Source of the DNA: an uncultured Pirellulales bacterium
GTDB lineage: Bacteria > Planctomycetota > Phycisphaerae > Sedimentisphaerales > Anaerobacaceae
Reading direction: 5' to 3'
Length of the DNA stretch: 61,623 nt
NCBI GenBank assembly: GCA_964405375.1
Contig: CAYONQ010000001.1
Coordinates: forward strand, 1 to 61,623
Positions within the stretch are counted from its first letter, which is position 1; each line of letters opens with the position of its first letter. The translations under genes and the position numbers were made by a program. Below, piece after piece: positions 6,562 to 59,318 of this stretch. The notes under the pieces were generated by a model. That model saw nothing but the letters and a program-made list of their open reading frames with translations, did no database searches and was not told where the DNA came from.

Positions 6562-6563
6562 TT

Positions 6564-8224: not shown

Positions 8225-8327
8225 GCTAAAGTGCCTAAAGTGAGCTAAAGTGCCTAAAGTGAGCTAAAGTGAAAAAATTATCCATAACTTTAGGCATTTT
8301 AGGCACTCCAAACTTTAGGCACTTAAA
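8211..8327 (+). repeat. Intercistronic element: tandem gtgNNctaaa units followed by inverted ctttaggcac units (long imperfect hairpin)
   Basis: At 8221-8273 the sequence is gtgagctaaa gtgcctaaa x2.5. Inverted copies are actttaggca (8287-8296), ttttaggcac (8297-8306) and actttaggcac (8312-8322). The element overlaps the upstream stop codon and ends 10 nt before ATG 8337. Confidence 0.85.
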
Positions 8328-28096: not shown

Positions 28097-29752
28097 ATGG
28101 CTGATTATTCAACGAGTTTAACAGGAGAGAAATTCCCCATACCCCAGAAAGACGAGTACGATGCGGAGTTCAGGCGCATCGAATCGCTGGCAGAGGCGGC
28201 GCGGGCCGAGGGCAAGGAAATCGTTGTGGTGATGGGCCTGGGCTTCGTCGGTGCGGTTATGGCCGCTATCATTGCCGACAGTGTCGATAAGAAAACGGGC
28301 AAACCGAACAAGTTTGTCATCGGCTGTCAGCGGCCAAGCGTTCGAAGCTACTGGAAGGTCCCGCTGTTTAACCAGGGCATCTCACCGGTGAAGGCGGAGG
28401 ACCCTGAGGTCGAGCCGATGATAGCCCGTTGTGTGCTCGAGAAAAAAACGCTTGTCGCCACATACGACAGCGATTGTCTCAAATTAGCCGACTGTGTAGT
28501 TGTGGACGTGCAGTGCGATTATACAAAACAGGACCTCGGCAATATGCGAACCGGAATAGCGGAAATGAAGGCCCTGGAAGCAACAATAAAGACCATTGGC
28601 GAAAAGATTCCGCCGAAATGCCTGACGCTTATCGAGACGACTGTTGCTCCCGGCACGACGGAATTCGTTGCACTGCCCATTATGAAAAAGGCATTTGCCG
28701 ACCGCGGCATAGACTCGGAGCCGCTGCTGTCGCACAGCTTTGAGCGGGTTATGCCCGGTAGAGAATACGTCTCATCGATACGGGATTTCTGGCGGGTCTG
28801 CTCCGGCTGTAACGCCGAAGCGAGGCATCGCGTCGAAAAATTTCTACGAGAGGTGCTGAATACCGAAGAATACCCCCTGACCGTTATGGACCGCCCTATC
28901 GAGTCGGAGACCACCAAAATCGTTGAGAATTCCTATCGCGCCACCATATTAGCATTTCTCGACGAGTGGAGCCTGTTTGCGGAGCAAAACGGCGTGGACT
29001 TGATTAAGGTCGTCAAGGCAATAAAGATGCGGCCCACGCACAGCAACATCATATTTCCAGGGCCGGGTATCGGCGGATACTGCCTGCCAAAGGATGGCGG
29101 GCTGGGGTACTGGGCGTACAAGCACATTCTCGGTTTCGACGACGATATCTTCAAGATAACACCAATGGCAATCGACACCAACGACACACGCGGTCTTCGT
29201 GCGGCAACGCTGACAGAAGAGGCCCTGAAAGATATGGGTCGGCAGACAGCCGGCGCAGCCATACTTTTGTGCGGGGCCAGCTATCGGCAGGATGTGGCCG
29301 ACACCCGTTACAGCGGCTCAGAGATAGTCTTTCGCAAGCTGACCGAGATGGGAGCCGATATGCGGGTGCACGACCCGTATCTCGAGCACTGGTTCGAGCT
29401 GGAGCAGCAGGACACATACCCAGCCCCCGGTCATTCGTGGGCGAGATTTTTCCGCAATCAGGACAATGTGGTTAATACCCGTGTTCAGAACGACCTTGCC
29501 GCCGCGATTGCCGGTGCCGATGCGGTGATATTGGCCGTGCCGCACGAACCTTACCTTGAACTCGACCCCGACAAAATAGTTGAATGGGTGGGAAAACCGC
29601 TGGCGGTGATTGACTGCTTCGGCATACTGGAAGACGAAAAAATCCGCCGGTATCTCGAACTGGGCTGTGAGGTAAAGGCCCTCGGTCGAGGACACATCAA
29701 ACGTATAAAAGAAGAAATACAAAAAGCAAAAAGCGTATCTCGTGAAGCGTGA
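28097..29752 (+). CDS. Nucleotide-sugar dehydrogenase (UDP-glucose/GDP-mannose dehydrogenase family), long form
   Basis: The Rossmann motif VVMGLGFVGAVMA and the catalytic Cys motif GIGGYCLPKDG are present. At 551 aa it is longer than typical family members. Confidence 0.85.
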   Translation: MADYSTSLTGEKFPIPQKDEYDAEFRRIESLAEAARAEGKEIVVVMGLGFVGAVMAAIIADSVDKKTGKPNKFVIGCQRPSVRSYWKVPLFNQGISPVKAEDPEVEPMIARCVLEKKTLVATYDSDCLKLADCVVVDVQCDYTKQDLGNMRTGIAEMKALEATIKTIGEKIPPKCLTLIETTVAPGTTEFVALPIMKKAFADRGIDSEPLLSHSFERVMPGREYVSSIRDFWRVCSGCNAEARHRVEKFLREVLNTEEYPLTVMDRPIESETTKIVENSYRATILAFLDEWSLFAEQNGVDLIKVVKAIKMRPTHSNIIFPGPGIGGYCLPKDGGLGYWAYKHILGFDDDIFKITPMAIDTNDTRGLRAATLTEEALKDMGRQTAGAAILLCGASYRQDVADTRYSGSEIVFRKLTEMGADMRVHDPYLEHWFELEQQDTYPAPGHSWARFFRNQDNVVNTRVQNDLAAAIAGADAVILAVPHEPYLELDPDKIVEWVGKPLAVIDCFGILEDEKIRRYLELGCEVKALGRGHIKRIKEEIQKAKSVSREA

Positions 29753-29768
29753 AGTGTATCTCGAACTA
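29734..29768 (+). repeat. Heptad array (cgtatct cgtgaag cgtgaag tgtatct cgaacta) containing the dehydrogenase stop codon
   Basis: Five in-phase 7-bp units use the same words as 6564-6598. The TGA at 29750-29752 lies inside a cgtgaag unit. Confidence 0.8.
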
Positions 29769-29816
29769 AATCCGGGGTATAAATGTTATCCCTACAGTAA
29801 GCAGGGGGAATGGAAA

Positions 29817-38356: not shown

Positions 38357-38377
38357 TACGAGATACGAGATACGAAC
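38357..38377 (+). repeat. Heptad array tacgaga tacgaga tacgaac ending 1 nt before the ATG at 38379
   Basis: It is the reverse complement of the gtatctcgt word family seen at 6564-6598 and 29734-29768. Confidence 0.75.
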
Positions 38378-38378
38378 T

Positions 38379-39113
38379 ATGCCTGATAAGCGAACACATA
38401 GAGGCCCGCATCCGGCAGATGCCAAATTATTTGCCCCTGCCGTGATTGCCGATTTACGAGCAGCCCTTGCCGATTTTTCGCTTTTGCTGACGAAGGGCTA
38501 TGCTGATAAAAGCGCCCTTAAGTTAGTCGGGGACAAACTTTCGCTTACGGAAAGGCAACGGCTGGCAATTATGCGAAGCGCCTGCTCCGACCAGCAGCTC
38601 GCCTCCCGAAGCGAGTGCGAAGTCAGGATTGCCGAACTCACCGGCCAGCCGATTGCTATTGATGGTTATAATGTCCTGATAACGACTGAGGCGGCAATGA
38701 GCGGCGGCTGTATCTTTAAGGGACGGGATGGCTGCTTCAAAGATTTGGCGAGCATACACGGGACGTACCGCAAAGTTACCGAGACGATACCCGCTGTTCA
38801 GCTTATAGGCCAATTCTTAAAAGAGGTTGGCGTAAGCGATTGTTTGTGGCTTTTAGATAGCCCGGTCTCGAACAGCGGCCGATTGAAAACGCTAATCGGC
38901 GAACTGGCCGACAAAAACAACTGGCACTGGGAAATCGAACTTCTCCTGAGTCCCGATGCTAAGCTGATAAAAACTGACTCGATTGTAGCCAGCAGTGACA
39001 GCGTTGTGCTTGACGGCTGCAAAAGATGGGTGAATTTAGCCCGCGCCATTATCGAGGCGAAACTGCCCAAAGCCCACTTGATAGATTTATCAGAAGAAGA
39101 CCGCAGCTATTAA
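38379..39113 (+). CDS. DUF434-like protein (possible DUF434 plus DUF5616 architecture)
   Basis: Recognition of the pattern KRTHRGPHPAD...LTERQRLAIMR...DGYNVLIT is from memory only. The start was set at ATG 38379. Confidence 0.45.
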   Translation: MPDKRTHRGPHPADAKLFAPAVIADLRAALADFSLLLTKGYADKSALKLVGDKLSLTERQRLAIMRSACSDQQLASRSECEVRIAELTGQPIAIDGYNVLITTEAAMSGGCIFKGRDGCFKDLASIHGTYRKVTETIPAVQLIGQFLKEVGVSDCLWLLDSPVSNSGRLKTLIGELADKNNWHWEIELLLSPDAKLIKTDSIVASSDSVVLDGCKRWVNLARAIIEAKLPKAHLIDLSEEDRSY

Positions 39114-39412: not shown

Positions 39413-39475
39413 GAAATCCGAAATCCTAATATCGAAATCCGAAACAATCTCAAAATCCAAATGACCCAAATTCAA
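39413..39475 (+). repeat. Degenerating heptad array (gaaatcc gaaatcc taatatc gaaatcc gaaacaa tctcaaa atccaaa ...) in an AT-rich non-coding region
   Basis: This is direct reading of the sequence. The 7-bp phase is kept over about 9 units. Confidence 0.7.
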
Positions 39476-39894: not shown

Positions 39895-41443
39895 ATGAAA
39901 AGACTCGTTCGGCTCGCGGCTTATCTTTGTCTTTCACCATTCTGGTCTACCGGCCAGAACAGTGCTATTGCTGCCGAGGATATTGTCCGGCTGGTAAAAG
40001 ACGTCAAGCCCGCCGTCGTCTTAATACAGACCTTCGATGCCGACAGCCAGCCAAGCGGTAGTGCCAGCGGCTTCTTCATAAATGACAAAGCCCACATTAT
40101 CACCAACCACCACGTTATCGAAGGCGCTTACTCTGCCACCGTTAGAACCTCGTCCGGCAGGGAATATGCCGTTGAAGGCATCCTTGCAAGTGACATCAAG
40201 GCCGACATCGTCAAATTATCGGTCAACATACAGGACTCCAACATCACCCCATTGAAACTAAGCACCACAATACCATCGGAAGGCGAAGACATCGTGGTTA
40301 TCGGAAGCCCCCCTCGGCCTTGAGGCAAGTGTATCGACCGGCATAGTGTCGGCAGTTCGGGACATACCCGCCTTCGGCAAAATCCTCCAGATAACCGCTC
40401 CTGTCTCGCCCGGCTCAAGCGGCAGCCCTGTCTTAAATACCAAAGGGGAGGTAATCGGCGTAGCTACATTTATCGCTACCGAAGGCCAGAATCTCAACTT
40501 CGCCATACCTGTAGAAAAAATCCTCTCCTTAAAATATACCCCTGTGCCTGTCAAGCTGGGGCAATTCCATATCCCAGCACCCGATGTGAACGATGCCGAA
40601 TTGCTCTACATAAAAGGCCTGCTGCAGGTTTGGCAGGAAAACTGGGCTGATGCACTTACCTACTTCCAAAAAGCCGTATCAAAAAGGCCACAGTACGCTG
40701 ATGCCTGGTTTTATGTCGGTTATTGCTACGGCGAGCTTGGCCGCCACCGAAAGGCAATAGATGGCTATAAGCAGGTCATCAGAATCAAGCCCGATGACGC
40801 CGAGGCACACCATAATCTCGGTGTTTCTTACGGCGAACTCGGCCGCTATCGAGAGGCGATAGAGGCCTTTAAGCAGGCCATCAGAATCAAGCCCGATGAC
40901 GCCGAGGCATACGATAATCTCGGCGTTGCTTACGACAACCTTGGCCGCTATCAAGAGGCGATAGATGCCTACAAGCAGGCAATCAGAATCAAGCCCGATG
41001 ACGCCGATGCGCACTATAATCTCGGCGTTACTTACTACACGCTTGGCCGCTGGCAAGAGGCGATAGATGGCTTTAAGCAGGCCATCAGAATCAAGCCGGA
41101 TGACGCCGAGGCACACTATAATCTCGGCGTTACTTATGGCCAGCTTGGCCGCTGGCAGGAGGCGATGGAGTCATTTAAGCAGGCAATCAGAATAAAGCCG
41201 GATCTCGCCGAAGCACACTATAGTCTCGGCAATTCTTACGGTCAGCTTGGCCGCTGGCGGGAGGCGATAGCGGCATTTAAGCAGGCAATCAGAATCAAGC
41301 CGGATTACGCCGAGGCACACCGTAATCTCGGTGTTGCTTACTTTCTAATCGGCGACAAGGACTCCGCTCTCGAGGAATACAAAATTCTCAAAACATTAGA
41401 TGTAGAAGATGCCAACAACCTTTTTAACTTAATTTCTGAATAA
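39895..41443 (+). pseudogene. Trypsin-like (S1C/DegP-type) serine protease fused to TPR repeats, interrupted by a +1 frameshift in a C6 run
   Basis: ORF 39895-40323 carries the His (ITNHHVIEG) and Asp (DIVKL) regions and ends in [12 protein letters not shown] 40346-41443 carries [13 protein letters not shown] (catalytic Ser). Deleting one C of 40308-40313 gives the continuous sequence [23 protein letters not shown]. Confidence 0.85.
40700..41340 (+). repeat. Coding tandem repeat, 102-bp period (34-aa TPR units, about 6-7 highly similar copies)
   Basis: atcagaatcaagcc recurs at 40778, 40880, 40982, 41084 (atcagaatcaagccgga) and 41288. The repeated peptide is [34 protein letters not shown]. 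Confidence 0.9.
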
Positions 41444-41574
41444 AGCCGAATAAACTATGGAAAGCAGACTTGTTGAAACTTTTAACCAGGCCAAATTCCG
41501 ACACGTTTTTGCTGTTCATTTCAATCGTAAATAGTAAATTGTAAATCGCCAATTCCCTGTCGGCGCAATAAATT

Positions 41575-43156: not shown

Positions 43157-43478
43157 AGGAAAAACCCTTCCTTAAAACGAATAATTATTACTGTAAACCT
43201 GACCACATATCTGCGGTTCTGCCTAACAACCCAATATTAACCCCTTCCAACAGATAAATCAAAGGCATTTTTCTGACCTTTGCAGATTGAATATGTCCGG
43301 TTTTTAATTTTATTTTCTTCTGAAAAACCACAAGCACTTATGGGACGTAGTATCTTATAGGCAGCGGTTTATTCGGCTGCAAACCGTAAATTTACAATTT
43401 ACGTCTTAAACGGCCTCGCTTTAAGGCCGAATAAGGGTATATAACATAGTGCGAATACACAGTAATGGGAATCAAAAA

Positions 43479-44218: not shown

Positions 44219-45172
44219 ATGGCTAATTCGGCGCCACAGAAGAAGAAAAGGAAAAGACATAATCCCTTTACGGATTGGTTCTGGTATGTTGCGCTGCGGA
44301 TTCTTGTGATTTTCCTTTACCTTTTTGACGTCGAGACCAATCTAAAGACCGCTTGTTTTCTTGGCCGACTGCTGTGGAAACATTATCACCGGGGCCGAAA
44401 GCGGGCGCTGAATAATCTTCGCGCAAGCTTCCCGGAAAAAAGCGAACAATGGTTATGGCACACCGGACGACGAAGTTTCGAGCATATCGCAATGCTGGCA
44501 ATTGACATATTGTTCACGCCGCGATTGGTGAAAAAGCACAACTGGCGGGACTATTCGCAGTTTAAAACCGCCGAAAAGGCCAAGTGGCTGATGAAAGAAG
44601 GCAACGGTATGATTATGGTCGCGGCCCACTACGGCAACTTTGAGATTATGGGCTATATGCTGGGGCTGTTCGGTTTTAATGTTTATAGTATTGCCCGGCC
44701 GTTGGACAACAAGTTTATTAATAGCTACCTGTATGAGGTCCGCCGGCAAGTCGGCCAGAAAATAATCGATAAAAAAGGCGCAGCCGAGCTTATGGAGGAT
44801 ATCGCCTCAAGAGGTGCGACACTCTGCTTTATCGCCGACCAGGATGCCGGCAGAAAAGGGATATTCGTTGACTTCTTCGGCCGTAAGGCCAGCACCTACA
44901 AAAGCATAGCCCTACTTGCTATCACCAATAATGTACCGATAGGCGTAGCTTATAGCAGAAGGATTGATAACCGTTTTTACTTTGAAATTGGGATTAATCG
45001 AATTATCTTCCCCGAAGAGTGGGCCGAAAGAGACGACGCCCTTGAGTGGGTTACCGCAGAATATACCAGGGCAATAGAGCAATTCGTACGGGAAGAACCG
45101 AGCCAGTACTGGTGGCTACACCGCAGATGGAAACATCGGCCAAAAAAAGAGATACAAACAGCCAAGGGGTAA
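44219..45172 (+). CDS. Lysophospholipid/lipid A biosynthesis acyltransferase (LpxL/HtrB family)
   Basis: An N-terminal TM helix is present. The HX4(D/E) motif is in AAHYGNFE. ADQDAG and downstream family-like conservation are present. Confidence 0.75.
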   Translation: MANSAPQKKKRKRHNPFTDWFWYVALRILVIFLYLFDVETNLKTACFLGRLLWKHYHRGRKRALNNLRASFPEKSEQWLWHTGRRSFEHIAMLAIDILFTPRLVKKHNWRDYSQFKTAEKAKWLMKEGNGMIMVAAHYGNFEIMGYMLGLFGFNVYSIARPLDNKFINSYLYEVRRQVGQKIIDKKGAAELMEDIASRGATLCFIADQDAGRKGIFVDFFGRKASTYKSIALLAITNNVPIGVAYSRRIDNRFYFEIGINRIIFPEEWAERDDALEWVTAEYTRAIEQFVREEPSQYWWLHRRWKHRPKKEIQTAKG

Positions 45173-45219
45173 TTTAACCGGAAAATCCCGGTCTTGTGAA
45201 ACCATCCTGCGAGTTGGGC

Positions 45220-45528
45220 TTACTTTTCTTCTTTCTTAAACTGCTCAAGCGATTGCGGCTCGGCCACCTTGCGGTAGCCAAGTGCCTTTATCACCTCAAG
45301 AACCTCGGTCCAGGTTGGAAATGGTCTTGCATTTTTTCTTTTATACTCGTCAATAGCCATAACAAATTCAAACTGTTCGTCCGACATATCGCCTTCTTCG
45401 GCGGATTTTCGCTCATCGCTTCTGCGTCTGCCCGGGCCTCGCCGGCGGTCCAGTCCTAAACGCCTGTCAACAACATCCCGCCTGCGGTCTTCACCCGACC
45501 GACGCTCTATGAAATGCTGATTGTCCAT
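45220..45528 (-). CDS. Hypothetical protein with an Arg/Asp-rich N-terminal half (DRR repeats) and a conserved-looking C-terminal helical domain
   Basis: The ORF has a start at MDNQHF, and the coding frame is maintained. No family was recognised. Confidence 0.45.
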
Positions 45529-45569
45529 TTGTACCTCGTATCCGATATCCACATCACACACAATAAATC

Positions 45570-46124
45570 TGGTGGCGGTTAAAGCTCGTCCTCGAAGAGG
45601 TCACTGTCAAAGTCCTCGTCTTCTTCTTCCAGCGCAAAATCGTAAAAATCATCATAGGCATCCTGCGACTCGATTATTACGTGTGCCTCATCGAGAAAAT
45701 CCTCAGGGACCATTACAGCAATGCCTTTACCGCCGCCTTGGGCGGATTGGTCCTCTTGTTTGATGATGACGGGTATATCGTTGTTCTTCAGCAGCGTTTC
45801 ATAGTCCCTGGCCAGTTCGGCATCTTCGGTGAATGCAACGGCGACAAGCTCTTGCAGCCTGGCCTGTGATTTTTGAGTTTTTTTGCGATGTTTCGCCATT
45901 CTATCTCTCCGCTACAAGCCGGATTCCCAAGTGTATTTTATTGCGTTTTGAGTCTCGCTTAACCTGACTTACTATCGGCTCTGAAAGGCCGTTTATTCAG
46001 ATATTTTCGTCAAAATAAGCCGTTTGAATTATTAAATTATTAAAAATTACCCGCCCCGCAATTGTGAAAATTTGACATTTGTGCACATTTTTTTGTTGCA
46101 AATCCTTGCAGCTGTATGTAATAA
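45570..46124 (-). repeat. Right arm of the inverted duplication (partner 27334-27893)
   Basis: See the left arm. The reverse complement aligns over the leader, the CDS and 9 nt after the stop. Confidence 0.9.
45579..45899 (-). CDS. Small acidic protein, possibly DUF2007-like fold (copy 2)
   Basis: The 106-aa protein differs from the product of 27561-27884 at roughly a dozen positions plus one Asp indel. Confidence 0.7.
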
Positions 46125-46323
46125 CAAGGCCTGAATGTTGTTCTTTTGCGGGAAAGCCCCAAATATAAGGGCGTTCAGGCAGGGAGTTTTATTTGTGGTT
46201 CTTCACAAATGGGGTCCCGAGGCCGACAAAACACAAAAGCAGTTTCCCGATAGTACGCCGGCTTCAAGGATATGATGCCGGACTATTAAAACTTAACTTT
46301 TTTAATATGGAGGATTTTTGTCA

Positions 46324-46509
46324 ATGGCAAAGAAAAAAGAATCTCTGATTGTAGCCAGCAAAGTTAAGGCCTATATCAAGAGCAAGAAGATGATGACCTC
46401 ATCTGAGTTGCTCGGAGCACTCAACGATGCTGTCTATCGTATGCTTGACGGTGCTGCTGCCCGAACCAAGGCCAACCGCCGCAGTACAGTCAAGGCACAG
46501 GACCTGTAG
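46324..46509 (+). CDS. Histone-fold DNA-binding protein candidate (DUF1931 / bacterial histone HBb-like singlet)
   Basis: MAKKKESLIVASKVKAYIKSKKMMTSSELLGALNDAVYRMLDGAAARTKANRRSTVKAQDL matches the remembered DUF1931 pattern (L-V-x-SKVK-x-IK ... A-x-x-A-x-x-x-GRKTV-x-x-xD). A strong RBS ggagga lies 9 nt upstream of ATG 46324. Confidence 0.6.
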   Translation: MAKKKESLIVASKVKAYIKSKKMMTSSELLGALNDAVYRMLDGAAARTKANRRSTVKAQDL

Positions 46510-46625
46510 AGAAAACTGCTGTTTTGTAAAAGCAGCCCATTCTGCGAAAAAACCGCAAAATGGGCACTCAACAGCTAACATCTTTTGAACAGGTATCTTA
46601 CGTCTGCGATAACGCTGCTAAAGTG

Positions 46626-46663
46626 AGCCGTTCCGCGGTGGAAAAGCGGAACGGCTTTTCTTA
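46626..46663 (+). terminator. Rho-independent terminator (agccgttccgc / gcggaacggct followed by ttttctt)
   Basis: An 11-bp perfect stem (46626-46636 and 46646-46656) with a 9-nt loop and a T-tract. Confidence 0.8.
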
Positions 46664-47119
46664 ATTGGCTATCTCCAGCTTTGTTAACTACCTTGCATTG
46701 CAGCTATTACTCGTTTTTAGTTATCAGTCCTTGACTGTACATTTAAAAACATTCAATCAAAAAACGCACGGCTAACCACAAGCCGTCGAATACACAACCT
46801 ACGGAGTTTCTTAGCCCTTACAGACCGGTAAAATCCGCTTTACCAGTATCAAAATTCCTATTTTTGGGAAATTTGTTGAACTTATTGTCCCAAAAAGCCC
46901 GATTTATATAGCAAGGACTAAAGCAAAGGCGGTATTTTTCTATCAGCTAACGGTTAAGAATACATAATTTCCTGCCGATGAAGCAACAGCCGCCAGATTG
47001 CAAATCGGCTATCCGGCATGCAAAGATAAAAGGCCACTTGTGGTGAGAGGATTTTAGAAAATGTTAATCGTAACTTCCTATCTAACAGGTAGTTACTTAA
47101 ATAGTTTGGTGAAAGTAGC

Positions 47120-48397
47120 ATGAGAGTCTTGATGTTGGGCTGGGAGTTTCCTCCGTTTATCAGTGGCGGACTTGGTACGGCCTGCTACGGGCTTACCAAA
47201 GCAATGGACCAGCTCGGCATAAAAGTAACCTTTGTGCTGCCCAAAATGGTTGATAACCAATATTCCACCCATGTAAAGCTGATAAGCCCCGACAGCCATA
47301 TGTGGTCGGCTTTCAGATTCGACAAGCTGAAAAATGTGGCATTCCGCACAATCAGCTCACCGTTACAGCCGTATTCAACACCCAGCGCCTACCAGAGACG
47401 AATCGAGGAGACCTTAAGCCAAAAACACGGCGGCAGCATCAGCTCAGCCGGTCAATTCGGAACAGACTACAGCGGCGATATGTACGCCGAGGTTCACCGT
47501 TATGCTGCGGTTGCTGCTGAATTAGCCAAGAATGAGCAGTTTGACATCGTTCACGCCCACGACTGGATGACCTACCCTGCCGGTATTGTGGTCTCGGCAA
47601 CGAGCGGAAAACCGCTGATTGTGCACGTGCACTCGACCGAATTCGACCGCAGCGGCGAAAACGTCAACCAGATGATTTACGACATCGAGCGAAAGGGAAT
47701 GCACGCAGCACATAAGGTAATCGCTGTCAGCCACTTTACCCGCAACATCATAATCGGCCGATACGGTATCAGCGGTCAAAAGGTCGAAGTAGTCCACAAC
47801 GGCGTAGAGCACAACGGAAACGGCAACTGGTCTTTAGCTGAAAGTGGCATCGGCAAAAACGAAAAAATCGTCCTGTTTTTGGGCAGAATTACAATGCAAA
47901 AAGGCCCCGAATACTTCCTGCAGGCAGCCAAAAAGGTCCTCGAAGTGATGGACAACGTCAAGTTCGTTATGGCCGGCTCCGGCGACTTAATGCACCGCGC
48001 CGTCGAAATGGCAGCGGAGCTGGGCATCGGTCACAAAGTGCTCTTCACCGGCTTCCTGCAAGGCGAGGCCGTCCAGAAAATATACAAAATGGCCGACCTT
48101 TTCGTGATGCCTTCCGTCTCCGAGCCATTCGGCATAGTACCTCTCGAAGCGCTGGAAAACGATGTGCCTGTCATAATAAGCAAACAAAGCGGCGTGTCAG
48201 AAGTCCTGATGCACGCCCTTAAAGTTGACTTCTGGGACGTCAATGAGATTGCCAATAAAGTTATAGCGATACTAAAATACCCCCCGCTGCAAGAAACATT
48301 AGCGAACTACGGTAATTTTGAGGTAAGGAGACTTCGCTGGAAAGATAGCGCCACAAAGTGTTTGAGAATTTACGAGGAAACACTGGTCGCTGTCTGA
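47120..48397 (+). CDS. GT-B glycosyltransferase, glycogen/starch-synthase-like (GT4/GT5)
   Basis: The N-terminus MRVLMLGWEFPPFISGGLGTACYGL is present, together with a C-terminal PSVSEPFGIVPLEALENDVPVI motif. It is clustered with GH57 and debranching enzyme genes. Confidence 0.75.
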   Translation: MRVLMLGWEFPPFISGGLGTACYGLTKAMDQLGIKVTFVLPKMVDNQYSTHVKLISPDSHMWSAFRFDKLKNVAFRTISSPLQPYSTPSAYQRRIEETLSQKHGGSISSAGQFGTDYSGDMYAEVHRYAAVAAELAKNEQFDIVHAHDWMTYPAGIVVSATSGKPLIVHVHSTEFDRSGENVNQMIYDIERKGMHAAHKVIAVSHFTRNIIIGRYGISGQKVEVVHNGVEHNGNGNWSLAESGIGKNEKIVLFLGRITMQKGPEYFLQAAKKVLEVMDNVKFVMAGSGDLMHRAVEMAAELGIGHKVLFTGFLQGEAVQKIYKMADLFVMPSVSEPFGIVPLEALENDVPVIISKQSGVSEVLMHALKVDFWDVNEIANKVIAILKYPPLQETLANYGNFEVRRLRWKDSATKCLRIYEETLVAV

Positions 48398-48402
48398 AAA
48401 AT

Positions 48403-48486
48403 GTGAATCGTGATTGGTGAAGCGTGAATCGAGACACGAACCACGAGACACGAACCACGAGACACGAACCACGAGACACGAAATAT
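48403..48486 (+). repeat. Twelve phase-locked heptads (gtgaatc gtgattg gtgaagc gtgaatc, then [gagacac gaaccac] x3.5, then gaaatAT) running into the GH57 start codon
   Basis: Counted base by base. It starts 6 nt after the stop at 48395-48397, and the last unit contains the A and T of ATG 48485. Confidence 0.9.
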
Positions 48487-49732
48487 GGCTTCGGTATGCT
48501 TCTACTTTCAAGTACATCAGCCCCTGCGATTGAGGCACTATACGGTATTTGACAAGAACGACCAATATTTCGACGATTATAAAAATGCCTCTATCTGCAG
48601 AAAGGTGGCGAACAAATGCTACCTTCCCACCAACCGGCTGCTTCTGGACATAATAAAAAGGTATAAAGGTGAATTTAAGATAGCATACAGTATAACCGGC
48701 GTATTACTGGAGCAGCTCCAGAAATACTCACCAGAGGTTATGAGCACCTTTGATGCTCTGGCGGAAACCGGCTGTGTGGAGTTCCTGGCCGAGACGTATT
48801 ATCATAGCTTGAGCTTTTTATACTCACGGGATGAATTCATAGAGCAGGTGAACAAGCACCTCGAAACCATCGAACATATCTTCGGTCAAAAACCCCGAGT
48901 GTTTAGAAATACGGAGCTGATATACAATAACGATTTAGCTTCACTTGTCGAATCAATGGACAAATTCGATGCGATAATAACCGAGGGTGCAGACCACATA
49001 TTAGGTTTTAGAAGCCCCAATTTCATTTATCAGCCCAAGGACTGCAGCAAGCTAAAGCTTCTGCTTAAAAACTATTCCCTCAGCGACGATATCGCCTTTA
49101 GGTTCTCCAACCGCAGTTGGTCACAGTGGCCTTTGACGGCAGAGAAATTCGCCGGATGGATAAGCAATGTCAATGGAAACGGCAACGTGGTCAACCTGTT
49201 TATGGATTACGAGACATTCGGCGAACACCAATGGAAGGATACGGGCATATTTGACTTTATGCGGCACCTGCCGGAACAGATTCTAAACCATCCTGACAAT
49301 AACTTCAAAACCCCAAGTGAGATAGTTCAGCTTTACCAGCCCGTGGACACGATTGATGTGCCCCATCTCATAAGCTGGGCAGATACCGAAAGGGACCTGT
49401 CGGCCTGGCTGGGAAACGCAATGCAGTCCAACGCAATTCACGAGCTTTATCGGCTTGAAAAGAAAATCAAGAAAACCGGCGACAAAAAAATCATCGCCGA
49501 CTGGCGAAAACTGCAGACATCAGACCATTTTTATTATATGTGCACGAAATACTTTGCCGACGGCGACGTGCATAAGTACTTTAACCCGTATGACTCGCCT
49601 TACGACTCTTACATTAACTTTATGAACGTGCTGGACAATCTTAACAACCGTTGTTCCAGGCAGATAATCGGGGGGACGGCTTACAGTCCGTCGCAAAATA
49701 AAAACCCGCCCCATTTACAAACGGTAAATTAA
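48485..49732 (+). CDS. Glycoside hydrolase family 57 (alpha-amylase/alpha-glucan-active)
   Basis: The N-terminal FYFQVHQPLRL motif is present, along with a GH57-like TEGADH region and FMDYETFGEHQW. Confidence 0.85.
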   Translation: MASVCFYFQVHQPLRLRHYTVFDKNDQYFDDYKNASICRKVANKCYLPTNRLLLDIIKRYKGEFKIAYSITGVLLEQLQKYSPEVMSTFDALAETGCVEFLAETYYHSLSFLYSRDEFIEQVNKHLETIEHIFGQKPRVFRNTELIYNNDLASLVESMDKFDAIITEGADHILGFRSPNFIYQPKDCSKLKLLLKNYSLSDDIAFRFSNRSWSQWPLTAEKFAGWISNVNGNGNVVNLFMDYETFGEHQWKDTGIFDFMRHLPEQILNHPDNNFKTPSEIVQLYQPVDTIDVPHLISWADTERDLSAWLGNAMQSNAIHELYRLEKKIKKTGDKKIIADWRKLQTSDHFYYMCTKYFADGDVHKYFNPYDSPYDSYINFMNVLDNLNNRCSRQIIGGTAYSPSQNKNPPHLQTVN

Positions 49733-49779
49733 CTGTCTGACTTGAATCTTACCGTAACAGCGCCTTTTGGAGTAGAGTT

Positions 49780-51834
49780 GTGTTAACATTGCAAAAAACC
49801 GGCGGTGTCGAAATCACCTCCGTATCGACAGCCGAAAAAAACATTGAGGATTTACTAACCAAGGAATGGCTGCTGACCAACAGCCGCGGTGGCTACGCAT
49901 CATCAACCATCGTCGGTTGCAACACCAGAAGATACCACGGCCTGCTCATCGGCTCACTTAACCCGCCCGTTAACAGGATAATGGCGCTGGCAAACTGCCT
50001 CGAGATGATTGTAATTAACGGCAACGTAATCAATCTTTCGACCTTTGAATTCAACGATAAATTCGCACCGCAAGGCCACACGTATCTTCTGCGATTTCGC
50101 CACGACATCGGGGTGCATTTTGATTACCAGCTTTCACAACTGAACCTGACCAAATCCGTTTATCTTGCCCGAGACACGGATACGGTCGGGCTGGTGTACG
50201 ATTTTACCGCTGTGCAGAGAAAAGTAGAATTCGTTCTTCGCCCCTTTATAGCTCTGCGGGATTTCCACGCACTGCAAAAATCTTACGCCCCGTTATGCTA
50301 TGAGAGATTTGAGAACACGCTGGCAGTTCACTATGATACACAGGGCGGCTCACCTCTAACGACAAGTTACCAAACCCCATCCTCGGACAGATGCGAACTG
50401 CTCATTAGATCTGACTCTGCAAACTTTGAAAAGGACGAGCAGTGGTGGTTCAATTTCGTATATCGCAACGACAGAGAAAGAGGTCAGGATTTTACCGAGG
50501 ATTTATGGACGCCCGGCTTTTTCAAATGCAAAATAGAAAAGCCCACCAAAATCATCTTCTGGGCAAGTCTTCGCAATCACCGCCGGCAAAATCAGCAGCC
50601 GGATAACATTAAAAAACTCTGCAAAAATTTGCAAAGGCATCAAAATACCGTAATCACCGCCGCTAAGACCAAAGATAGGAAACTTACAACCCTTTGCCTG
50701 GCCGCCGACCGGTTCATAAGCAAACGGCGAGTAAATCAACACTACAGAACCACCATTTTAGCCGGCTTTCCCTGGTTTGCAGACTGGGGCAGAGACGCCT
50801 TTGTCGCCCTGCCGGGACTGCTGCTGTCGACCGGCAGATTCGAGCAGGCAAAATCAGTCCTGACCACCTGGGCACAGGCAGCCGACAACGGTATGATTCC
50901 AAATCGCTTTGACGACCGCAGCGATACCGCCTACTTCAACAGTATAGACGCATCCCTGTGGTTTATCAATGCGGCCTTTGAATACTTAAATGCCACCGAT
51001 GACTTAGAAACCTTCACACAAGAGCTTCTACCCACCATTCACCAGATAATAGATTCCTATTACAACGGCACGCGATTTGACACCCGTGCCGATACCGACG
51101 GGCTTATAACCTCCGGCAGCGAGGACACCCAGCTAACCTGGATGGACGCAAAATACGAAGGCGTCGCCTTCACACCCAGATATGGAAAGGCAGTGGAGAT
51201 TAACGCCCTGTGGTATAACAGTTTTTGCCGGCTGGCTGAATTCTACGCCGACAGAGATAAAAAGGCCGAAAGGCACTTCAAATCCATAGCAGCCAAAGTC
51301 AAGAAAAGCTTCTGCGAACTATTCTGGAACGAAACAACCGGCTACCTGAACGACTGCATTTTGCCTGACGGCTCTGTCGACTCGACGCTCCGGCCGAACC
51401 AGATATTCGCCGTTTCACTGCCCTTTTCACCACTGCCGCCAAAGCTCGCAAAGCACGTGGTGGACACAGTGCAAAAAGAGCTGCTCACACCTTACGGCCT
51501 GCGAACATTAAACACTCAATCCAGCCATTATAAAGGCAGATACACAGGCCCCCAGCAGCAGCGAGACCAGGCCTACCACCAGGGCACAGTCTGGCCGTAT
51601 CTGATTGGGCCGTTCGTAGAGGCATATCTGAAGGTCAACAACTTCAGCCCAGAAAGCAAAGACGAAGCGGCTGATTTCATTGAGCCGCTGATGCAACACT
51701 TAACCGAGGACGGCTGCCTCGAACAATTAGCCGAAATATTCGACGGCGACCCCCCACATCAGCCAAGGGGCTGTATCGCACAGGCCTGGAGCGTCGCCGA
51801 ACTCATCAGGGCATACCGGCTCATAAACTCATAA
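49780..51834 (+). CDS. Amylo-alpha-1,6-glucosidase / glycogen debranching enzyme (GDE_N plus GDE_C)
   Basis: Motifs are TRRYHGLLI, GFPWFADWGRDAF, QLTWMDA and AYHQGTVWPYLIGPF. The start is GTG. Confidence 0.88.
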   Translation: MLTLQKTGGVEITSVSTAEKNIEDLLTKEWLLTNSRGGYASSTIVGCNTRRYHGLLIGSLNPPVNRIMALANCLEMIVINGNVINLSTFEFNDKFAPQGHTYLLRFRHDIGVHFDYQLSQLNLTKSVYLARDTDTVGLVYDFTAVQRKVEFVLRPFIALRDFHALQKSYAPLCYERFENTLAVHYDTQGGSPLTTSYQTPSSDRCELLIRSDSANFEKDEQWWFNFVYRNDRERGQDFTEDLWTPGFFKCKIEKPTKIIFWASLRNHRRQNQQPDNIKKLCKNLQRHQNTVITAAKTKDRKLTTLCLAADRFISKRRVNQHYRTTILAGFPWFADWGRDAFVALPGLLLSTGRFEQAKSVLTTWAQAADNGMIPNRFDDRSDTAYFNSIDASLWFINAAFEYLNATDDLETFTQELLPTIHQIIDSYYNGTRFDTRADTDGLITSGSEDTQLTWMDAKYEGVAFTPRYGKAVEINALWYNSFCRLAEFYADRDKKAERHFKSIAAKVKKSFCELFWNETTGYLNDCILPDGSVDSTLRPNQIFAVSLPFSPLPPKLAKHVVDTVQKELLTPYGLRTLNTQSSHYKGRYTGPQQQRDQAYHQGTVWPYLIGPFVEAYLKVNNFSPESKDEAADFIEPLMQHLTEDGCLEQLAEIFDGDPPHQPRGCIAQAWSVAELIRAYRLINS

Positions 51835-51963
51835 CGCATCGTGCGCCCCTTTCGAAAACCACGCCAATCCACACCCGTTTTTTGTCCTTTCCGAGATTAG
51901 ATGAAATATGGTATAATTGCGCAACATACGCAGAGAAACGAAATAATTTGGGAGGCCGCAATT

Positions 51964-52827
51964 ATGAAAAACACAATCCTCACAAGTACGGGAACACTCA
52001 TAGTAGTTTTCGCCTTGGGCCACTTATCTTCAAACCTGTACGCACAAGTAAATCGAGAACAAAGCCCTGCCGAAACAGAGCAAGCAGCTACCGAAACCCC
52101 TCGAGAAACCAACCAGTCAAGACCAAGAGCGAGCTTTGTTAAAATGGCAGACTTCTATCTAAGAGACGGCCAGCTCGTATTCGGAGAGCTGCTCTCGGAG
52201 GACAAGAATAAAATCACCGTCAAACAGTTGGACGAAAGCAGGATTATCGTATCCACCTACAGTAAGAGAGAGATTGATACCAGGTCGCTGCACATCAAAA
52301 ATACACCCGAGTTCAAGTACTACATAGAGCTGGCCGAATACTTCGCCGGCAGAACCTGGGACTTCAGGGACGACCCCGACGATTTTATACAGGCGATTCG
52401 CTGCTACGAGAAGGCCAAACAATCAATCACAGACACTCAAAGACAAGAGAACGAAACCGAGCAAATAGACAAAAGAATAGAACAACTGCAGTCAGACAGA
52501 GAAATCTGGATAAGAGAGGTGCAATCGCGGGCACAGCTAAGGAAACTGGAGTTTGAAGCGGAGACCGAAAAAAGAATCAAAGAGCTCGAAGACAATATCA
52601 GTGAAACCAGCCGGCAGCTCAACGAAAGTGTCGCAGATATGAAGGAAAACTATCAGAAACTTGAAACAGGTATCTCCCAGCTAAACAATGAGCTGTCCCG
52701 CCAGAACGAGCAGATTAGGGCCAACAGAAGACTGATTGACCGCATCTATTATCGTAACCAACGGCACTGGCCACAGTTCTATTATTATCCATACAGAAGG
52801 CAGGGCGAGCCCCCTGAGAAGGATTAG
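51964..52827 (+). CDS. Secreted coiled-coil hypothetical protein
   Basis: A signal peptide follows MKNTILTSTGTLIVVFALG with RBS gggagg. A long heptad-rich Glu/Gln/Arg segment follows. Confidence 0.55.
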   Translation: MKNTILTSTGTLIVVFALGHLSSNLYAQVNREQSPAETEQAATETPRETNQSRPRASFVKMADFYLRDGQLVFGELLSEDKNKITVKQLDESRIIVSTYSKREIDTRSLHIKNTPEFKYYIELAEYFAGRTWDFRDDPDDFIQAIRCYEKAKQSITDTQRQENETEQIDKRIEQLQSDREIWIREVQSRAQLRKLEFEAETEKRIKELEDNISETSRQLNESVADMKENYQKLETGISQLNNELSRQNEQIRANRRLIDRIYYRNQRHWPQFYYYPYRRQGEPPEKD

Positions 52828-52891
52828 CCCGGCGGCAAACAACCAAAAAAGATAATCAGTTCCGGCGGGACATCGAGTCATTAAAGCGGCA

Positions 52892-53689
52892 TCAACCCTC
52901 GATTGCCTTTTTGACCTCTTTTAAGAATGTCGAAACTTCGGTGAGCATTTTCTCTTTGTTCGCCAGATTTTCCTCAATCAGCCCCACTATCTTTGAGCCG
53001 ATTATCACGCCGTCGGCTCCCGCCCGAGCGATTGTTGCCGCATGGGCGGGCTTGCTGATTCCAAAACCTACGCAAACCGGCACACTGGTTAGCTTTTTCA
53101 ATCCGCCGACCAGCCCCTCGACCAGGCCGGAAAGCTCCTCTCTGCTTCCCGTAACGCCTAACAGCGAGACAGTATAAATAAAGCCGGTCGTCTTGGAGGC
53201 AATAACCCTCATTCTCTCGGTGTCGGTATTTGGCGTAATCATAAAAACAGTGTCAAGGCCTGCCTGCATAGCGGGCGCTATAATCTCATCCGCATCGTCA
53301 ATACTCAAATCGGCAATCAAAACGCTGTTGACGCCGGCATGGTGAAAATCATCGAAAAATTTCTGCACCCCATACTGATAAACCAGATTGTAATACATCA
53401 GCAGTCCAATCGGGATATCCTTATAATCCTTTACCTTTCGGATAAACTCCAGCCCTTTCGCCACATTCATCCCACCCTTAAAGGCACGAATGTCGGCCTT
53501 CTGGATTGTCGGCCCGTCCGCTATCGGGTCGGAGAACGGGATACCTAATTCCAAAATATCTGCCCCTGCATCGGTAGCCGCCTTTACAATCGCAACGCTC
53601 GTATCGAAATCCGGGTCGCCGATGACGAAAAACGGTATCAACGCCGCCCTGTCTAACTCCGAAAAAACCTGCTTATACGTCCTCATCAA
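52892..53689 (-). CDS. trpA: Tryptophan synthase alpha chain
   Basis: Motifs are GDPDFDTS, ELGIPFSDPIADGPTIQ and GFGIS. Confidence 0.95.
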   Translation of the reverse strand: MMRTYKQVFSELDRAALIPFFVIGDPDFDTSVAIVKAATDAGADILELGIPFSDPIADGPTIQKADIRAFKGGMNVAKGLEFIRKVKDYKDIPIGLLMYYNLVYQYGVQKFFDDFHHAGVNSVLIADLSIDDADEIIAPAMQAGLDTVFMITPNTDTERMRVIASKTTGFIYTVSLLGVTGSREELSGLVEGLVGGLKKLTSVPVCVGFGISKPAHAATIARAGADGVIIGSKIVGLIEENLANKEKMLTEVSTFLKEVKKAIEG

Positions 53690-53696
53690 TCACTCC

Positions 53697-54872
<1,176 letters not shown>

Positions 54873-54893
54873 ATCTCATACCTCAAGTTACGA

Positions 54894-54967
54894 GTGACTA
54901 AAGTTACAAGTGCCTAAAGTTAAGAAAATTTAGCTCACTTTAGCTCACTTTAGTTCACTTTAGGCAC
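54894..54967 (-). repeat. Second copy of the gtgNNctaaa tandem-plus-inverted intercistronic element (between trpF and trpB, sense orientation on the minus strand)
   Basis: The minus strand reads gtgcctaaa gtgaactaaa gtgagctaaa gtgagctaaa, then a spacer, then ctttaggcac ttgtaa ctttagtcac. It lies 3 nt after the trpF stop and 21 nt before the trpB ATG. Confidence 0.85.
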
Positions 54968-54970
54968 TTC

Positions 54971-55594
54971 TCATCCTCTCAAGTGTCTTATATTTTCAAA
55001 TAATTCTTTCATCTTCTTGTGGTCCTTCTTGCCCGGCGACGCCTCAATGCCGCTGCAGACATCAATCCCGTAAACTCCCAACTCAACCGCATCTGCCGCA
55101 TTATCGGGATTAATCCCCCCTGCCAGAAAAATACGCTTGCCGATATGCCCTATGATATTCCAGTCGAAGGTCAGCCCCGTGCCGCCGTATTTCTCAGGAT
55201 GGAAGGCATCCAGCAGGACGGTATCCGTAAAGTAATCCTCCGCTTTTTCGATATCTTCCTGACTTTTTACTCGAATTGCCTTCATTGTCCTCACATCAAG
55301 AGAAAGAAGCGACTGACAGAACTGCGGACTCTCATCGCCGTGCAGTTGCACCCAGTCTAAATGACACCGGCTGATTGTTTCACGAATCTGTTCGAACGAG
55401 GCGTTCACAAACACGCCGGCAATATCTATAAAACCAGGCAACCTGTTTATTATTTCCATCGCCTTTTCCGGCGGCACATACCGGGGACTTTTCGGATAAA
55501 AATTAAACCCTAACAAATCTGCACCCATATCCATCGCCGCCGCGGCGTCCTCATAATTGGTAAGACCGCAAATTTTAACCTTCACTATCAACAT
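54971..55594 (-). CDS. trpF: Phosphoribosylanthranilate isomerase
   Basis: Motifs are KICGLT, GADLLGFNFYPKSPRYV and LAGGINPDN. At 207 aa there is no fused TrpC domain. Confidence 0.92.
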   Translation of the reverse strand: MLIVKVKICGLTNYEDAAAAMDMGADLLGFNFYPKSPRYVPPEKAMEIINRLPGFIDIAGVFVNASFEQIRETISRCHLDWVQLHGDESPQFCQSLLSLDVRTMKAIRVKSQEDIEKAEDYFTDTVLLDAFHPEKYGGTGLTFDWNIIGHIGKRIFLAGGINPDNAADAVELGVYGIDVCSGIEASPGKKDHKKMKELFENIRHLRG

Positions 55595-55629
55595 AAACCG
55601 TCGCTCGTGCCCCGTGAACCGTTTTTTGT

Positions 55630-56643
55630 TTATACTTTATTCGAAACCTCGATTAACTTTTCCAAGCAAGTCAATGCCGCACCATCGCTGACTGAGGCAT
55701 TCGCCAGCTCAATTGCCGATTTGAAATCTTCTGCCAAGCCGCTGACAATTATCGCAGCAGCGGCGTTTAGAATAACAATATCTTTGCGAGGCCCATGCTC
55801 CCTGCCGCTAAGTATGTCACGCAAGACCTTCGCACTTGCTTTAGCATCTGTTACCTTCAATTCCTCTATATCAGCCAACCTGATGCCAAAATTCTCGGGA
55901 TTCAGCTCCTTAAAGGTGATTCGACCTTCTTTTAATTCTGCTATTTTGGTAATCCCGGCTGTGCTTATCTCATCCAAACCGTCACTGTGAACCACCATTG
56001 CATACCTTGTCCCCAGCAGCTTAAGCGCCTCTGCAACGCTCTGCATCAGACCTTCATCGCCGACACCGAGCAGTTGAGCCGATACGTTGGCCGGGTTGGC
56101 TAAAGGCCCGAGAACATTGAAAACCGTCCTGAAGCCAAGCTGCTTTCGTATCGGCTGAACGTATTTCATCGCCGGATGAAAGCGAGGTGCAAACATAAAG
56201 CCGATATGCGCCTGTTTTATGCACTCTGCGACGGTCTCGGCGCCGGCATCTATCTTAACCCCTAACTGCTCAAGCACGTCCGCCGAGCCGCAGCCGCTGG
56301 TTATCCCGCGATTGCCGTGCTTGGCGATATAGACACCTGCGCCTGCCGCCACTATAGCAGCAGCAGTCGAGATGTTAGAGGTCTTAAATCTCCCTCCGCC
56401 CGTGCCGCAGGTATCAATCAGGTTATCAACGTCAACCTTGACACGGACGGCATGACTTCGCAGCGATTTGGCAAGTCCCGCCAGTTCCGCCGCCGTTGCC
56501 CCTTTTATACGCATCGCAGTAAGAAACGCAGCAATCTGCGGCTCGCTTACCCCGCCTTCAAAAATAATATCTAAAAGCCCAGTCGCCTGCTCAAAAGGCA
56601 AATCTTTACCGTCTAATAACAAATTAATATATTCAGTTATCAC
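55630..56643 (-). CDS. trpD: Anthranilate phosphoribosyltransferase
   Basis: Motifs are DTCGTGGG, KHGNRGITSGCGSADVLE and NVLGPLANP. Confidence 0.95.
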   Translation of the reverse strand: MITEYINLLLDGKDLPFEQATGLLDIIFEGGVSEPQIAAFLTAMRIKGATAAELAGLAKSLRSHAVRVKVDVDNLIDTCGTGGGRFKTSNISTAAAIVAAGAGVYIAKHGNRGITSGCGSADVLEQLGVKIDAGAETVAECIKQAHIGFMFAPRFHPAMKYVQPIRKQLGFRTVFNVLGPLANPANVSAQLLGVGDEGLMQSVAEALKLLGTRYAMVVHSDGLDEISTAGITKIAELKEGRITFKELNPENFGIRLADIEELKVTDAKASAKVLRDILSGREHGPRKDIVILNAAAAIIVSGLAEDFKSAIELANASVSDGAALTCLEKLIEVSNKV

Positions 56644-59140: not shown

Positions 59141-59318
59141 ACCGAAGCTTCTCAATGGCGCAATTTCGTAGCTGTTTTTTGCATTTTTTCACAATTATTC
59201 CTCACTTTTTTCTTTTTTTTTTGCAATTTCTCTTCGCTTTTTTACATCTTTTCGCAATTTTTCTCCACTTTTCTACCTTTCTTAAGCAGCTTTTACCCCA
59301 AAATCACCCAAAATACAA

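Follow-up and report, generated by a model that had tools for sequence, protein, structure and literature searches.

How does a strictly phased array of heptanucleotides come to fill the whole gap between two genes, and what might it do there? The question is raised by a 61,623-nt stretch of contig CAYONQ010000001.1, from an uncultured planctomycetotal bacterium (called the window below), in which twelve in-phase heptads occupy the spacer between a GT4/GT5 glycosyltransferase gene and a GH57 glycoside hydrolase gene and run into the GH57 start codon. The explanation that we favour, giving it about an even chance, is that the array is a heptanucleotide repeat of simple sequence, akin to STRR and TAACTGA, which slippage expanded from a conserved start-proximal leader motif standing in the place of a Shine-Dalgarno (SD) sequence.

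The heptad array upstream of GH57 and its relatives

The stop codon TGA of the upstream open reading frame (ORF; 48395-48397) is followed by the five nucleotides AAAAT and then, at 48403-48486, by the heptads GTGAATC GTGATTG GTGAAGC GTGAATC GAGACAC GAACCAC GAGACAC GAACCAC GAGACAC GAACCAC GAGACAC GAAATAT, the A and T of the GH57 ATG at 48485 being part of the last heptad. AAAAT and the array thus make up the 87-nt spacer. These letters match exactly the reading in a preliminary description of this DNA, which had noted a 7-bp register continuing up to the ATG. Three parts are distinguished below, using Tandem Repeats Finder (TRF) for the repeat scores:

48403-48430, + strand: left half of the array, GTGAATC GTGATTG GTGAAGC GTGAATC, in the CG register CGTGATT/GGTGAAG/CGTGAAT
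48430-48482, + strand: right half of the array, (CGAGACA CGAACCA) x3.8, identical 14-mers, TRF score 106
48471-48484, + strand: start-proximal core ACGAGACACGAAAT, abutting ATG 48485, the part of the array kept in orthologous spacers

The four left units match at 15 of 21 positions at a lag of 7, are conserved in phase in relatives, and use the same word family as two further sites of the window, at 6555 and 29734. The right half has a period of 14 with the unit CGAGACACGAACCA, present in 3.8 copies with 100% matches. Its words are the reverse complement of CGTGTCT and CGTGGTT, which are close to the words of the left half and of the 6555 and 29734 sites, and the two halves of the array are therefore inverted relative to each other. 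In the CG register, all main-family units in the window begin with CG (CGTGAAT, CGTGATT, CGTGAAG, CGTATCT, CGAGACA, CGAACCA). The base composition of the 55 nt leading up to the ATG (48430-48484) is 24 A, 18 C, 12 G and a single T, which is the last base before the ATG. As first stated in the preliminary description, no SD sequence is present: GGAG, GAGG and AGGA are all absent from the 25 nt before the ATG.

Self-similarity within the window is concentrated at this spacing, with five segments at lag 7 or 14 against one at all other lags from 4 to 15 combined, and no segment at lag 7 or 14 appeared in 50 Markov shuffles of the window. With its head-to-tail 7-nt units extending beyond chance length, the array is a heptanucleotide long simple-sequence repeat (LSSR) in the sense of Mrazek 2007.

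An assembly artefact was ruled out by homologous arrays in four independent samples. Contig L001, from a JGI metagenome (sample 3300031553), is 100% identical to positions 44791-56210 of the window (11.4 kb), array included, and may come from the same population. Three distinct relatives, L083, L082 and L166, carry homologous arrays at the same site, so that the absence from independent assemblies which had been named as evidence against the array is not what we observe. The comparison of copy number between related genomes that had been proposed gave 12, 11, 10 and 7 heptads:

Window: spacer of 87 nt, 12 heptads
L166 (NCBI GCA_030629185.1): spacer of 80 nt, 11 heptads, GH57 85% identical
L083 (JGI 3300049473): spacer of 73 nt, 10 heptads, GH57 90% identical
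L082 (ENA ERZ25073475): spacer of 52 nt, 7 heptads, GH57 95% identical

All four lengths equal 3 modulo 7, and in a MAFFT alignment of the spacers the gaps are single ones, of exactly 14 and 35 columns. Counting back from the ATG, one finds that the closing stretch of the upstream coding sequence (CACTGGT CGCTGTC TGAAAAA and variants) keeps to the heptad register in all four. L083 and L082 retain the left half in phase, and L166 has a single CGTGATT unit of it. The 14-mer expanded in L166 is a different one, CGAGCCA CGAGATA, and the expansions were therefore independent. Length differences of whole units are, to judge from the aligned spacers, the signature of slippage, and we infer that this was the mechanism. 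Relatives closer than 87% were obtained by searching for homologous proteins and then for the contigs encoding them; a protein-based scan of metagenome contigs yielded only relatives of at most 87% identity, and no strain variant turned up when metagenome contigs were scanned for exact 22-mers.

Variation of this kind could also mark a contingency (phase-variable) locus, in which units gained or lost within a population would switch or grade the expression of GH57. The spread of 12, 11, 10 and 7 heptads among close lineages fits such a locus, as does the recent expansion implied by the 100% identical 14-mers, and repeats of this type in 5' untranslated regions can drive phase variation (PMC12721329). 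The window and L001, however, which possibly represent one population, are identical over 11.4 kb, GH57 is a housekeeping glycogen enzyme and not a surface or restriction function, and the variation lies only between lineages of 85-95% protein identity, which makes it uninformative on a switching rate. We consider a contingency locus quite improbable.

The start-proximal core and the predicted leader

The motif ACGAGAY(ACGAAAT) adjoins the GH57 ATG not only in the relatives listed above but in a wider set of loci (L082-L085, L166, L002, L004, L007, L010, L012, L092, L095, L096, L098-L100, L103). In GH57 orthologues of 80-88% identity the spacers are otherwise unrelated, yet one to three copies of ACGAGAY stand against the ATG, as in the spacer ends ATACGAGATACGAGAT, AATACGAGATTAAAGATT and AAACGAGATACGAAAA, each directly followed by ATG. 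Orthologues of 73-78% identity have an SD-like GAGGG, AAGGA or GAGGAG at the ACGAGAY position. Since ACGAGAY is kept at orthologue starts where more distant relatives have an SD, the right half of the array can be described as an amplified conserved start-proximal motif.

A preference for gene starts is also seen when ACGAGAY is counted in 370 kb of sequence from close relatives, where 35 of its 118 sites precede an ORF start by 0-35 nt in sense orientation and 7 of 118 do so in antisense; 59 permuted words gave a mean of 5.2% and a maximum of 10% by the same near-start measure. The motif further abuts the starts of the DUF434/DUF5616 gene in the window, of a glycogen debranching enzyme (GDE) gene in L087, L090 and L091, and of two genes in L008. 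The ACGAGAY core, which is the conserved part of the array, is probably functional. Given its position in these comparisons, it is most likely part of a leader for SD-independent translation initiation.

The genes around the array are the following:

47120-48397, + strand: GT4/GT5 glycosyltransferase, glycogen/starch-synthase-like (Pfam Glycos_transf_1, 1.4e-36; Glyco_transf_5, 3.8e-19)
48485-49732, + strand: GH57 glycoside hydrolase (Pfam Glyco_hydro_57, 6.2e-78), with orthologues found
49780-51834, + strand: glycogen debranching enzyme (GDE_N and GDE_C; amylo-alpha-1,6-glucosidase), with an ordinary GGAG before its start

The GT4/GT5 gene also precedes GH57 in relatives, and GH57 orthologues of 60-86% identity come from metagenome-assembled genomes labelled Phycisphaerae, Sedimentisphaerales, Anaerohalosphaeraceae or Planctomycetota. 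An N-terminal extension of GH57 through the array was rejected, as the in-frame GTG at 48410 reaches a TGA after five codons. Public GH57 gene calls are mis-started at such spacers in P0005, P0010, P0011, P0016, P0037 and L083; the mis-started calls carry N-terminal extensions of 21-36 residues that are translated spacer or heptad repeats, such as HEPRDTSHEIRDTKYETRN in P0016, and the call in L083 is a truncated one with a TTG start. For annotation, the consequence is that gene callers place GH57 starts wrongly in these repeat spacers.

We propose that the three genes form a glycogen operon, in which the GT4/GT5 synthase would be followed by GH57 and the debranching enzyme, and that the array sits in a transcribed spacer within it. 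Replication slippage in steps of 7 and 14 nt would have amplified two short seeds of the ancestral spacer, the first a CGTGAWT-type word just past the stop codon, the second roughly the inverse of this word, ACGAGAY-ACGAAAT, immediately ahead of the GH57 start. The start-proximal core would be under selection within the SD-less leader, and the extra copies would be recent, as suggested by the 100% identity of the 14-mers in the window and by their lineage-specific number. In the mRNA, the left words would pair with the first right words to form a hairpin and leave the C/A-rich tail single-stranded up to the AUG. Copy number, by altering the hairpin and making the leader longer or shorter, may then tune the output of GH57 relative to the synthase.

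Folding predictions agree with this layout for the window. The left half forms the 5' arm of an imperfect intercistronic hairpin by pairing with the first right-hand units, and the last 20-30 nt before the AUG are predicted to be unpaired, C/A-rich and almost free of U. Folds of the spacer only gave the following values:

Window: -25.8 kcal/mol, z -2.79, 1 of 200 shuffles folding as well
L083: -22.6 kcal/mol, z -2.94, 3 of 200 shuffles folding as well
L082: -9.9 kcal/mol, z -0.73, not significant, 46 of 200 shuffles folding as well
L166: -15.5 kcal/mol, z -0.71, not significant, 50 of 200 shuffles folding as well

The predicted hairpin does not resemble an intrinsic terminator, the sequence after it being almost without U and having no U tract; no terminator-like site was found on the + strand of 48398-48484, and a terminator or promoter in the spacer was discarded, there being none on the + strand. 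At gathering score, Rfam returned no family at any of the arrays, its sole match in the window being a 16S rRNA fragment at 1-464.

A single-stranded, regularly phased leader might also serve as a multivalent platform, on which each heptad binds one protein that recognizes single-stranded RNA and covers about 7 nt (of the cold-shock-domain, S1 or a similar type), copy number setting the occupancy and hence GH57 translation or stability. The strict 7-nt phase across two word sets and across lineages, the predicted single-stranded tail almost without U, and the orientation bias of ACGAGAY towards starts are all in line with such a platform. Precedents exist in CspB of Bacillus subtilis, which binds heptamer repeats with one protein per heptamer, and in the S1, Csp and Csr proteins proposed as partners of TAACTGA repeats (PMC4679880). 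However, no candidate protein came out of the analysis, the many unrelated word families in one genome (CGTATCT, ATTGACT, GAAATCC, GTAAATA, GATTTTC) are at odds with one sequence-specific reader, and arrays occur in convergent gaps and in both orientations as well. We regard it as unlikely. A wider version appears slightly less likely still: heptad-phased arrays in this Phycisphaerae clade might constitute a lineage-wide post-transcriptional system, in which an RNA-binding protein reads single-stranded RNA in a 7-nt register, ACGAGAY-type heptads act as an SD-replacing landing pad at starts, and slippage by 7 or 14 nt provides an evolvable dial for the ratios of enzymes within an operon, here of glycogen synthase to GH57.

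Heptad repeats across the clade and the window

To place the array in context, tandem repeats with a TRF score of at least 40 were collected from 1.77 Mb of sequence, comprising the window and 164 related loci, with a crude ORF map that assigns 88% of the bases to coding and 11.6% to intergenic sequence. Repeats of period 7, 14 or 21 number 86, compared with 12 in a Markov-shuffled copy of the same 1.77 Mb, and period 14, with two alternating heptads, is the commonest form. By location, the counts are:

Period 7, 14 or 21: 49 intergenic, 37 in crude ORFs
All periods: 97 intergenic, 238 in crude ORFs

Heptad repeats thus supply 49 of the 97 intergenic repeats and, together with the excess over the shuffled copy, this makes heptad phasing the dominant intergenic form of tandem repeat in the clade. 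That 49 of 86 fall into the 11.6% of intergenic sequence is the depletion from coding sequence that characterizes LSSRs, as far as a crude ORF map can tell, and it bears out the intergenic enrichment for which a tandem-repeat scan had been suggested. The strict placement at gene junctions claimed alongside it did not hold. In co-directional gaps, the start is the closer gene end for 15 heptad arrays and the stop for 12; eight further arrays are in convergent gaps, which contain no start codon, and seven in divergent ones, and 37 of the 86 repeats are inside crude ORFs. Proximity to start codons was accordingly dropped as a general rule. Three other candidate generalities were rejected as well: inverted partner arrays (4 of 72, compared with 1 of 72 in controls), a concentration of repeats in the spacer upstream of GH57 (13 of 160 loci, compared with a 10% background), and phase-locked CG dinucleotides as a clade signature, period 7 not exceeding other periods in the related loci.

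This distribution argues for an explanation in which the array, core included, is a purely neutral product of slippage, found between genes only because 7-nt indels shift the reading frame within them. The share of arrays in each type of gap roughly follows that type's share of gap bases, without a bias towards starts, word families vary between genomes, the frequency of tandem repeats upstream of GH57 (13 of 160) does not exceed the 10% background for any gene, the accessibility of the start region is ordinary, and a general prokaryotic bias towards heptanucleotide slippage has been proposed (Mrazek 2007, as cited in PMC4679880). Neutrality does not readily account for the core, however. ACGAGAY stays beside the GH57 ATG at 80-95% identity while the remaining spacer turns over, it stands where more distant relatives have an SD, and it shows the strand bias near starts of 35 sense to 7 antisense occurrences. 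Local slippage alone also leaves unexplained the 16-mer CGTATCTCGTGAAGCG, which has three exact copies in 61 kb, one of them inside a conserved MFS domain. We judge a wholly neutral origin to be possible, though doubtful.

Several observations nevertheless weigh against expansion from a functional leader motif. The absence of a start-side preference in the clade (15 versus 12) and the arrays in convergent gaps mean that most arrays need no translational role. A missing SD is not special to GH57, since about 60% of ORF starts in the window are without an SD-like motif (one is present at 15 of 41 crude ORF starts, against a 9.6% background). The near-start signal of ACGAGAY derives mostly from GH57 orthologues, which represent one evolutionary event; the independent gene contexts in its favour number only about six. 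In L082 and L166, the hairpin fails to reach significance (z about -0.7). Predicted accessibility over positions -20 to +12 at the GH57 AUG is 0.488, rank 28 of 40 genes, and shuffled spacers give 0.464 +/- 0.08; the idea that the array opens the start codon was abandoned on finding this mean unpaired probability the same as in shuffled spacers. Finally, transcription as a single operon, the hairpin of the folding model and the translational effect are all steps that we infer. Of the role in translation initiation suggested in the preliminary description, what appears plausible concerns the conserved start-proximal core only, the test of start-codon accessibility having given nothing.

The other heptad sites of the window are listed here:

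6555-6598, + strand: main-family array, CGTGATT CGTATCT CGTGAAG CGTATCT CGTATTT CGTGAAA; TRF 6555-6597
29734-29768, + strand: main-family array, CGTATCT CGTGAAG CGTGAAG TGTATCT CGAACTA; TRF 29724-29763
18861-18876, + strand: third exact copy of the 16-mer CGTATCTCGTGAAGCG, in the MFS domain region of ORF 16880-20890
38357-38378, + strand: TACGAGA TACGAGA TACGAAC T, abutting ATG 38379 of the DUF434/DUF5616 gene; TRF 38357-38375, 100%
1176-1210, + strand: ATTGACT ATTTACT, period 14, a different family; non-coding, left of ORF 1258; TRF 1176-1207
20356-20397, + strand: GATTTTC AATCTCC, period 14, x2.8, in the Pfam-free C-terminal region of ORF 16880-20890; TRF 20356-20394
39413-39444, + strand: GAAATCC, about 4.6 degenerate copies, in a 781-nt gap
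41523-41547, + strand: GTAAATA-type heptads, x3.4, in a convergent gap with no start codon nearby; TRF 41523-41546
43385-43403, divergent gap: palindrome CGTAAAT TTACA ATTTACG, no TRF repeat

Eight sites besides the main array had been described as heptad-phased. Six are recovered by TRF, with starts at 1176, 6555, 29724, 38357, 41523 and 20356; that at 39413-39475 is repetitive to about 39444 and not beyond, and at 43385-43403 TRF finds nothing, the sequence being a short palindrome. The 16-mer copy at 18861 was absent from that list.

The array at 6555-6598 lies in the gap between an SMC gene and a zinc-ribbon gene, beginning on the stop codon of the former and ending at the GGAG of ATG 6606. 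That at 29734-29768 holds both the stop codon of a UDP-glucose-dehydrogenase-like gene (ending at 29752) and the first in-frame GTG (29742) of the next ORF, 29742-31988, which has no Pfam match and an uncertain true start. At the DUF434/DUF5616 gene, positions 38357-38381 read TACGAGATACGAGATACGAACT followed directly by the ATG, with the words and orientation of the right half of the main array. The start of its orthologue in L008 (78% identical) is abutted instead by AGTCAAT AGTAAAT x2.5 (3776-3810), and more distant orthologues have no heptad array at their start; as a tandem repeat is present in about 10% of upstream regions, the different arrays at these two starts could be due to chance. 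In the GH57-GDE spacer of L087, CGTATCT CGTGAAT CGTGAAT is followed by inverted ACGAGAT words.

The word families at 1176, 39413, 41523 and 20356 are unrelated to the main family. The 14-mer ATTGACTATTTACT of the 1176 site recurs in L008, L120 and L013 at loci with different flanks, and no similarity was found between the L008 locus and that of the window. A 16S rRNA gene ends far to the left of this site:

1-464, - strand: 5' part of a bacterial 16S rRNA gene (model positions 1-443), running off the left edge of the window

Its 3' end, with the anti-SD, lies beyond the window, and the ORFs called within 1-464 are spurious.

A second intercistronic family, with a period of about 10 (9+10=19), occurs at 8209-8325 (+ strand) and at 54873-54970 (read on the - strand). 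It consists of (GTGCCTAAA GTGAGCTAAA)n, then inverted copies ACTTTAGGCAC, then the start of the next gene; both copies have the same orientation to the downstream gene, and their tandem and inverted words give a hairpin, as in the heptad array. In L049, a GC-richer relative, and also in L140 and L141, GH57 is flanked by mutually inverted heptad arrays, which in L049 are of the GGACTTT type upstream of GH57 (1917-1942) and of the TCCAAAG type just downstream (3168-3200); two further period-14 arrays lie nearby, one of them AATCTCC AATCTGA x4.6.

Inverted layouts raise the prospect of an element acting at the level of DNA, either an extragenic palindrome resembling REP or BIME sequences, whose imperfectly palindromic units of 20-40 nt are scattered in many copies and go with a RAYT transposase, or a series of sites to which a DNA-binding protein attaches. 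The inverted halves of the main array do give an imperfect palindrome, the main word family is dispersed over five sites, and the period-10 family shares the tandem-then-inverted layout. A period of 7 or 14 bp, however, does not keep in step with the DNA helix, words run in a single orientation and form no palindrome at three of the five sites, and inverted partner arrays, at 4 of 72 against 1 of 72 in controls, are not general. Of the explanations considered, this appears to us the most improbable.

Other repeats in the window comprise an inverted duplication of about 555 nt with 87.7% identity (45570-46124 versus 27335-27893), of which the copy at 45579-45899 includes a DUF2007-family gene; a 102-nt repeat x6 at 40727-41341, inside ORF 40346-41443, whose 34-residue unit has a TPR-like length and is a candidate only; and a T-rich 31-nt repeat x3.4 at 59175-59280, in the gap upstream of a - strand gene ending at 58959.

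Relation to known heptamer-repeat systems

Heptanucleotides are the commonest LSSRs in most prokaryotic genomes, units whose length is not a multiple of three are excluded from coding sequence, and polymerase slippage has been proposed as the cause (Mrazek 2007, as cited in PMC4679880 and PMC4692102). These LSSRs form a statistical class and not a defined element; the locus described here adds a progression that can be followed at one orthologous site, starting with a lone conserved motif and reaching 12 units.

The STRR families of heterocystous cyanobacteria (Calothrix, Nostoc) have the consensus words CCCCAGT (STRR1), TTGGTCA (STRR2) and CAACAGT (STRR3). None of these occurs in tandem in the window, and the 1.77 Mb contain one TTGGTCA pair; the published units TAACTGA, GGGAATC and GGGGAYT form no tandem in the 1.77 Mb. 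Heptamer arrays have been reported upstream of recF and recO in Nostoc PCC 7120, where the recO array, GACYAAT x8, extends over the initial bases of the start codon and its deletion modestly changed reporter activity (bioRxiv 10.1101/2022.06.06.494920). The present arrays resemble those of STRR and Nostoc in being dispersed families of tandem heptamers between genes, and the main one overlaps its start codon as the recO array does; they differ in coming from another phylum and in being known here from sequence alone. The intergenic GGGAATC and GGGGAYT arrays of Xanthomonas and Nostoc vary in length and sequence among close relatives at the same gene pair, and some are inverted pairs able to form stem-loops (Rehm 2015, PMC4692102). 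Our locus shares with them intergenic heptamers that vary between close relatives at one gene pair, as well as words in inverted arrangement. Those repeats form G-quadruplexes, whereas no G runs are present here, the sense strand being C/A-rich and the opposite strand G/T-rich without GGG.

TAACTGA repeats have been described in marine Beggiatoaceae, some Cyanobacteria and Bacteroidetes (MacGregor 2015, PMC4679880). Many of them end a few nucleotides from a start codon, at the SD position and without an SD, related strains differ by indels in 7-nt increments, as in heptamer repeats compared between Cyanothece strains, and a translational role has been proposed (PMC4679880). The array before GH57 likewise consists of tandem intergenic 7-nt units that abut a start codon without an SD and differ by 7-nt steps. 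An array ending near a start, in fixed orientation and without an SD, is found both here and at 38357-38378, whereas the heptad arrays of the clade in general do not keep close to starts. The unit is also different, TAACTGA occurring as five single copies in the window and never in tandem in the 1.77 Mb; unlike in the TAACTGA system, two related heptads alternate and give a period of 14, one half of the array is inverted relative to the other, one genome contains several word families without relation to each other, and the clade shows no start-side preference.

The function of heptanucleotide repeats is a question of decades' standing in cyanobacteria (STRR) and in giant sulfur bacteria (TAACTGA), and the locus extends the phenomenon to the Planctomycetota. 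A full-text literature search, which did not cover subscription journals, found no description of heptamer or heptanucleotide repeats in Planctomycetes, in agreement with the statement in the preliminary description that none was known for this phylum. The phylum, with the class Phycisphaerae, and the repeat words are new; the kind of element is already known, and the locus does not reveal another. Its value lies in a natural series at one orthologous site, which leads from an SD in distant relatives through one ACGAGAY and two to three copies to 7, 10, 11 and 12 heptads. Such a series suits a direct test of copy number against translation and makes an old question somewhat more testable. The family likeness to STRR that had been proposed for the array stands, as a heptanucleotide family of that type. 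The closest described system, however, is that of the start-abutting, SD-replacing TAACTGA repeats, followed by the heptamer arrays of Nostoc.

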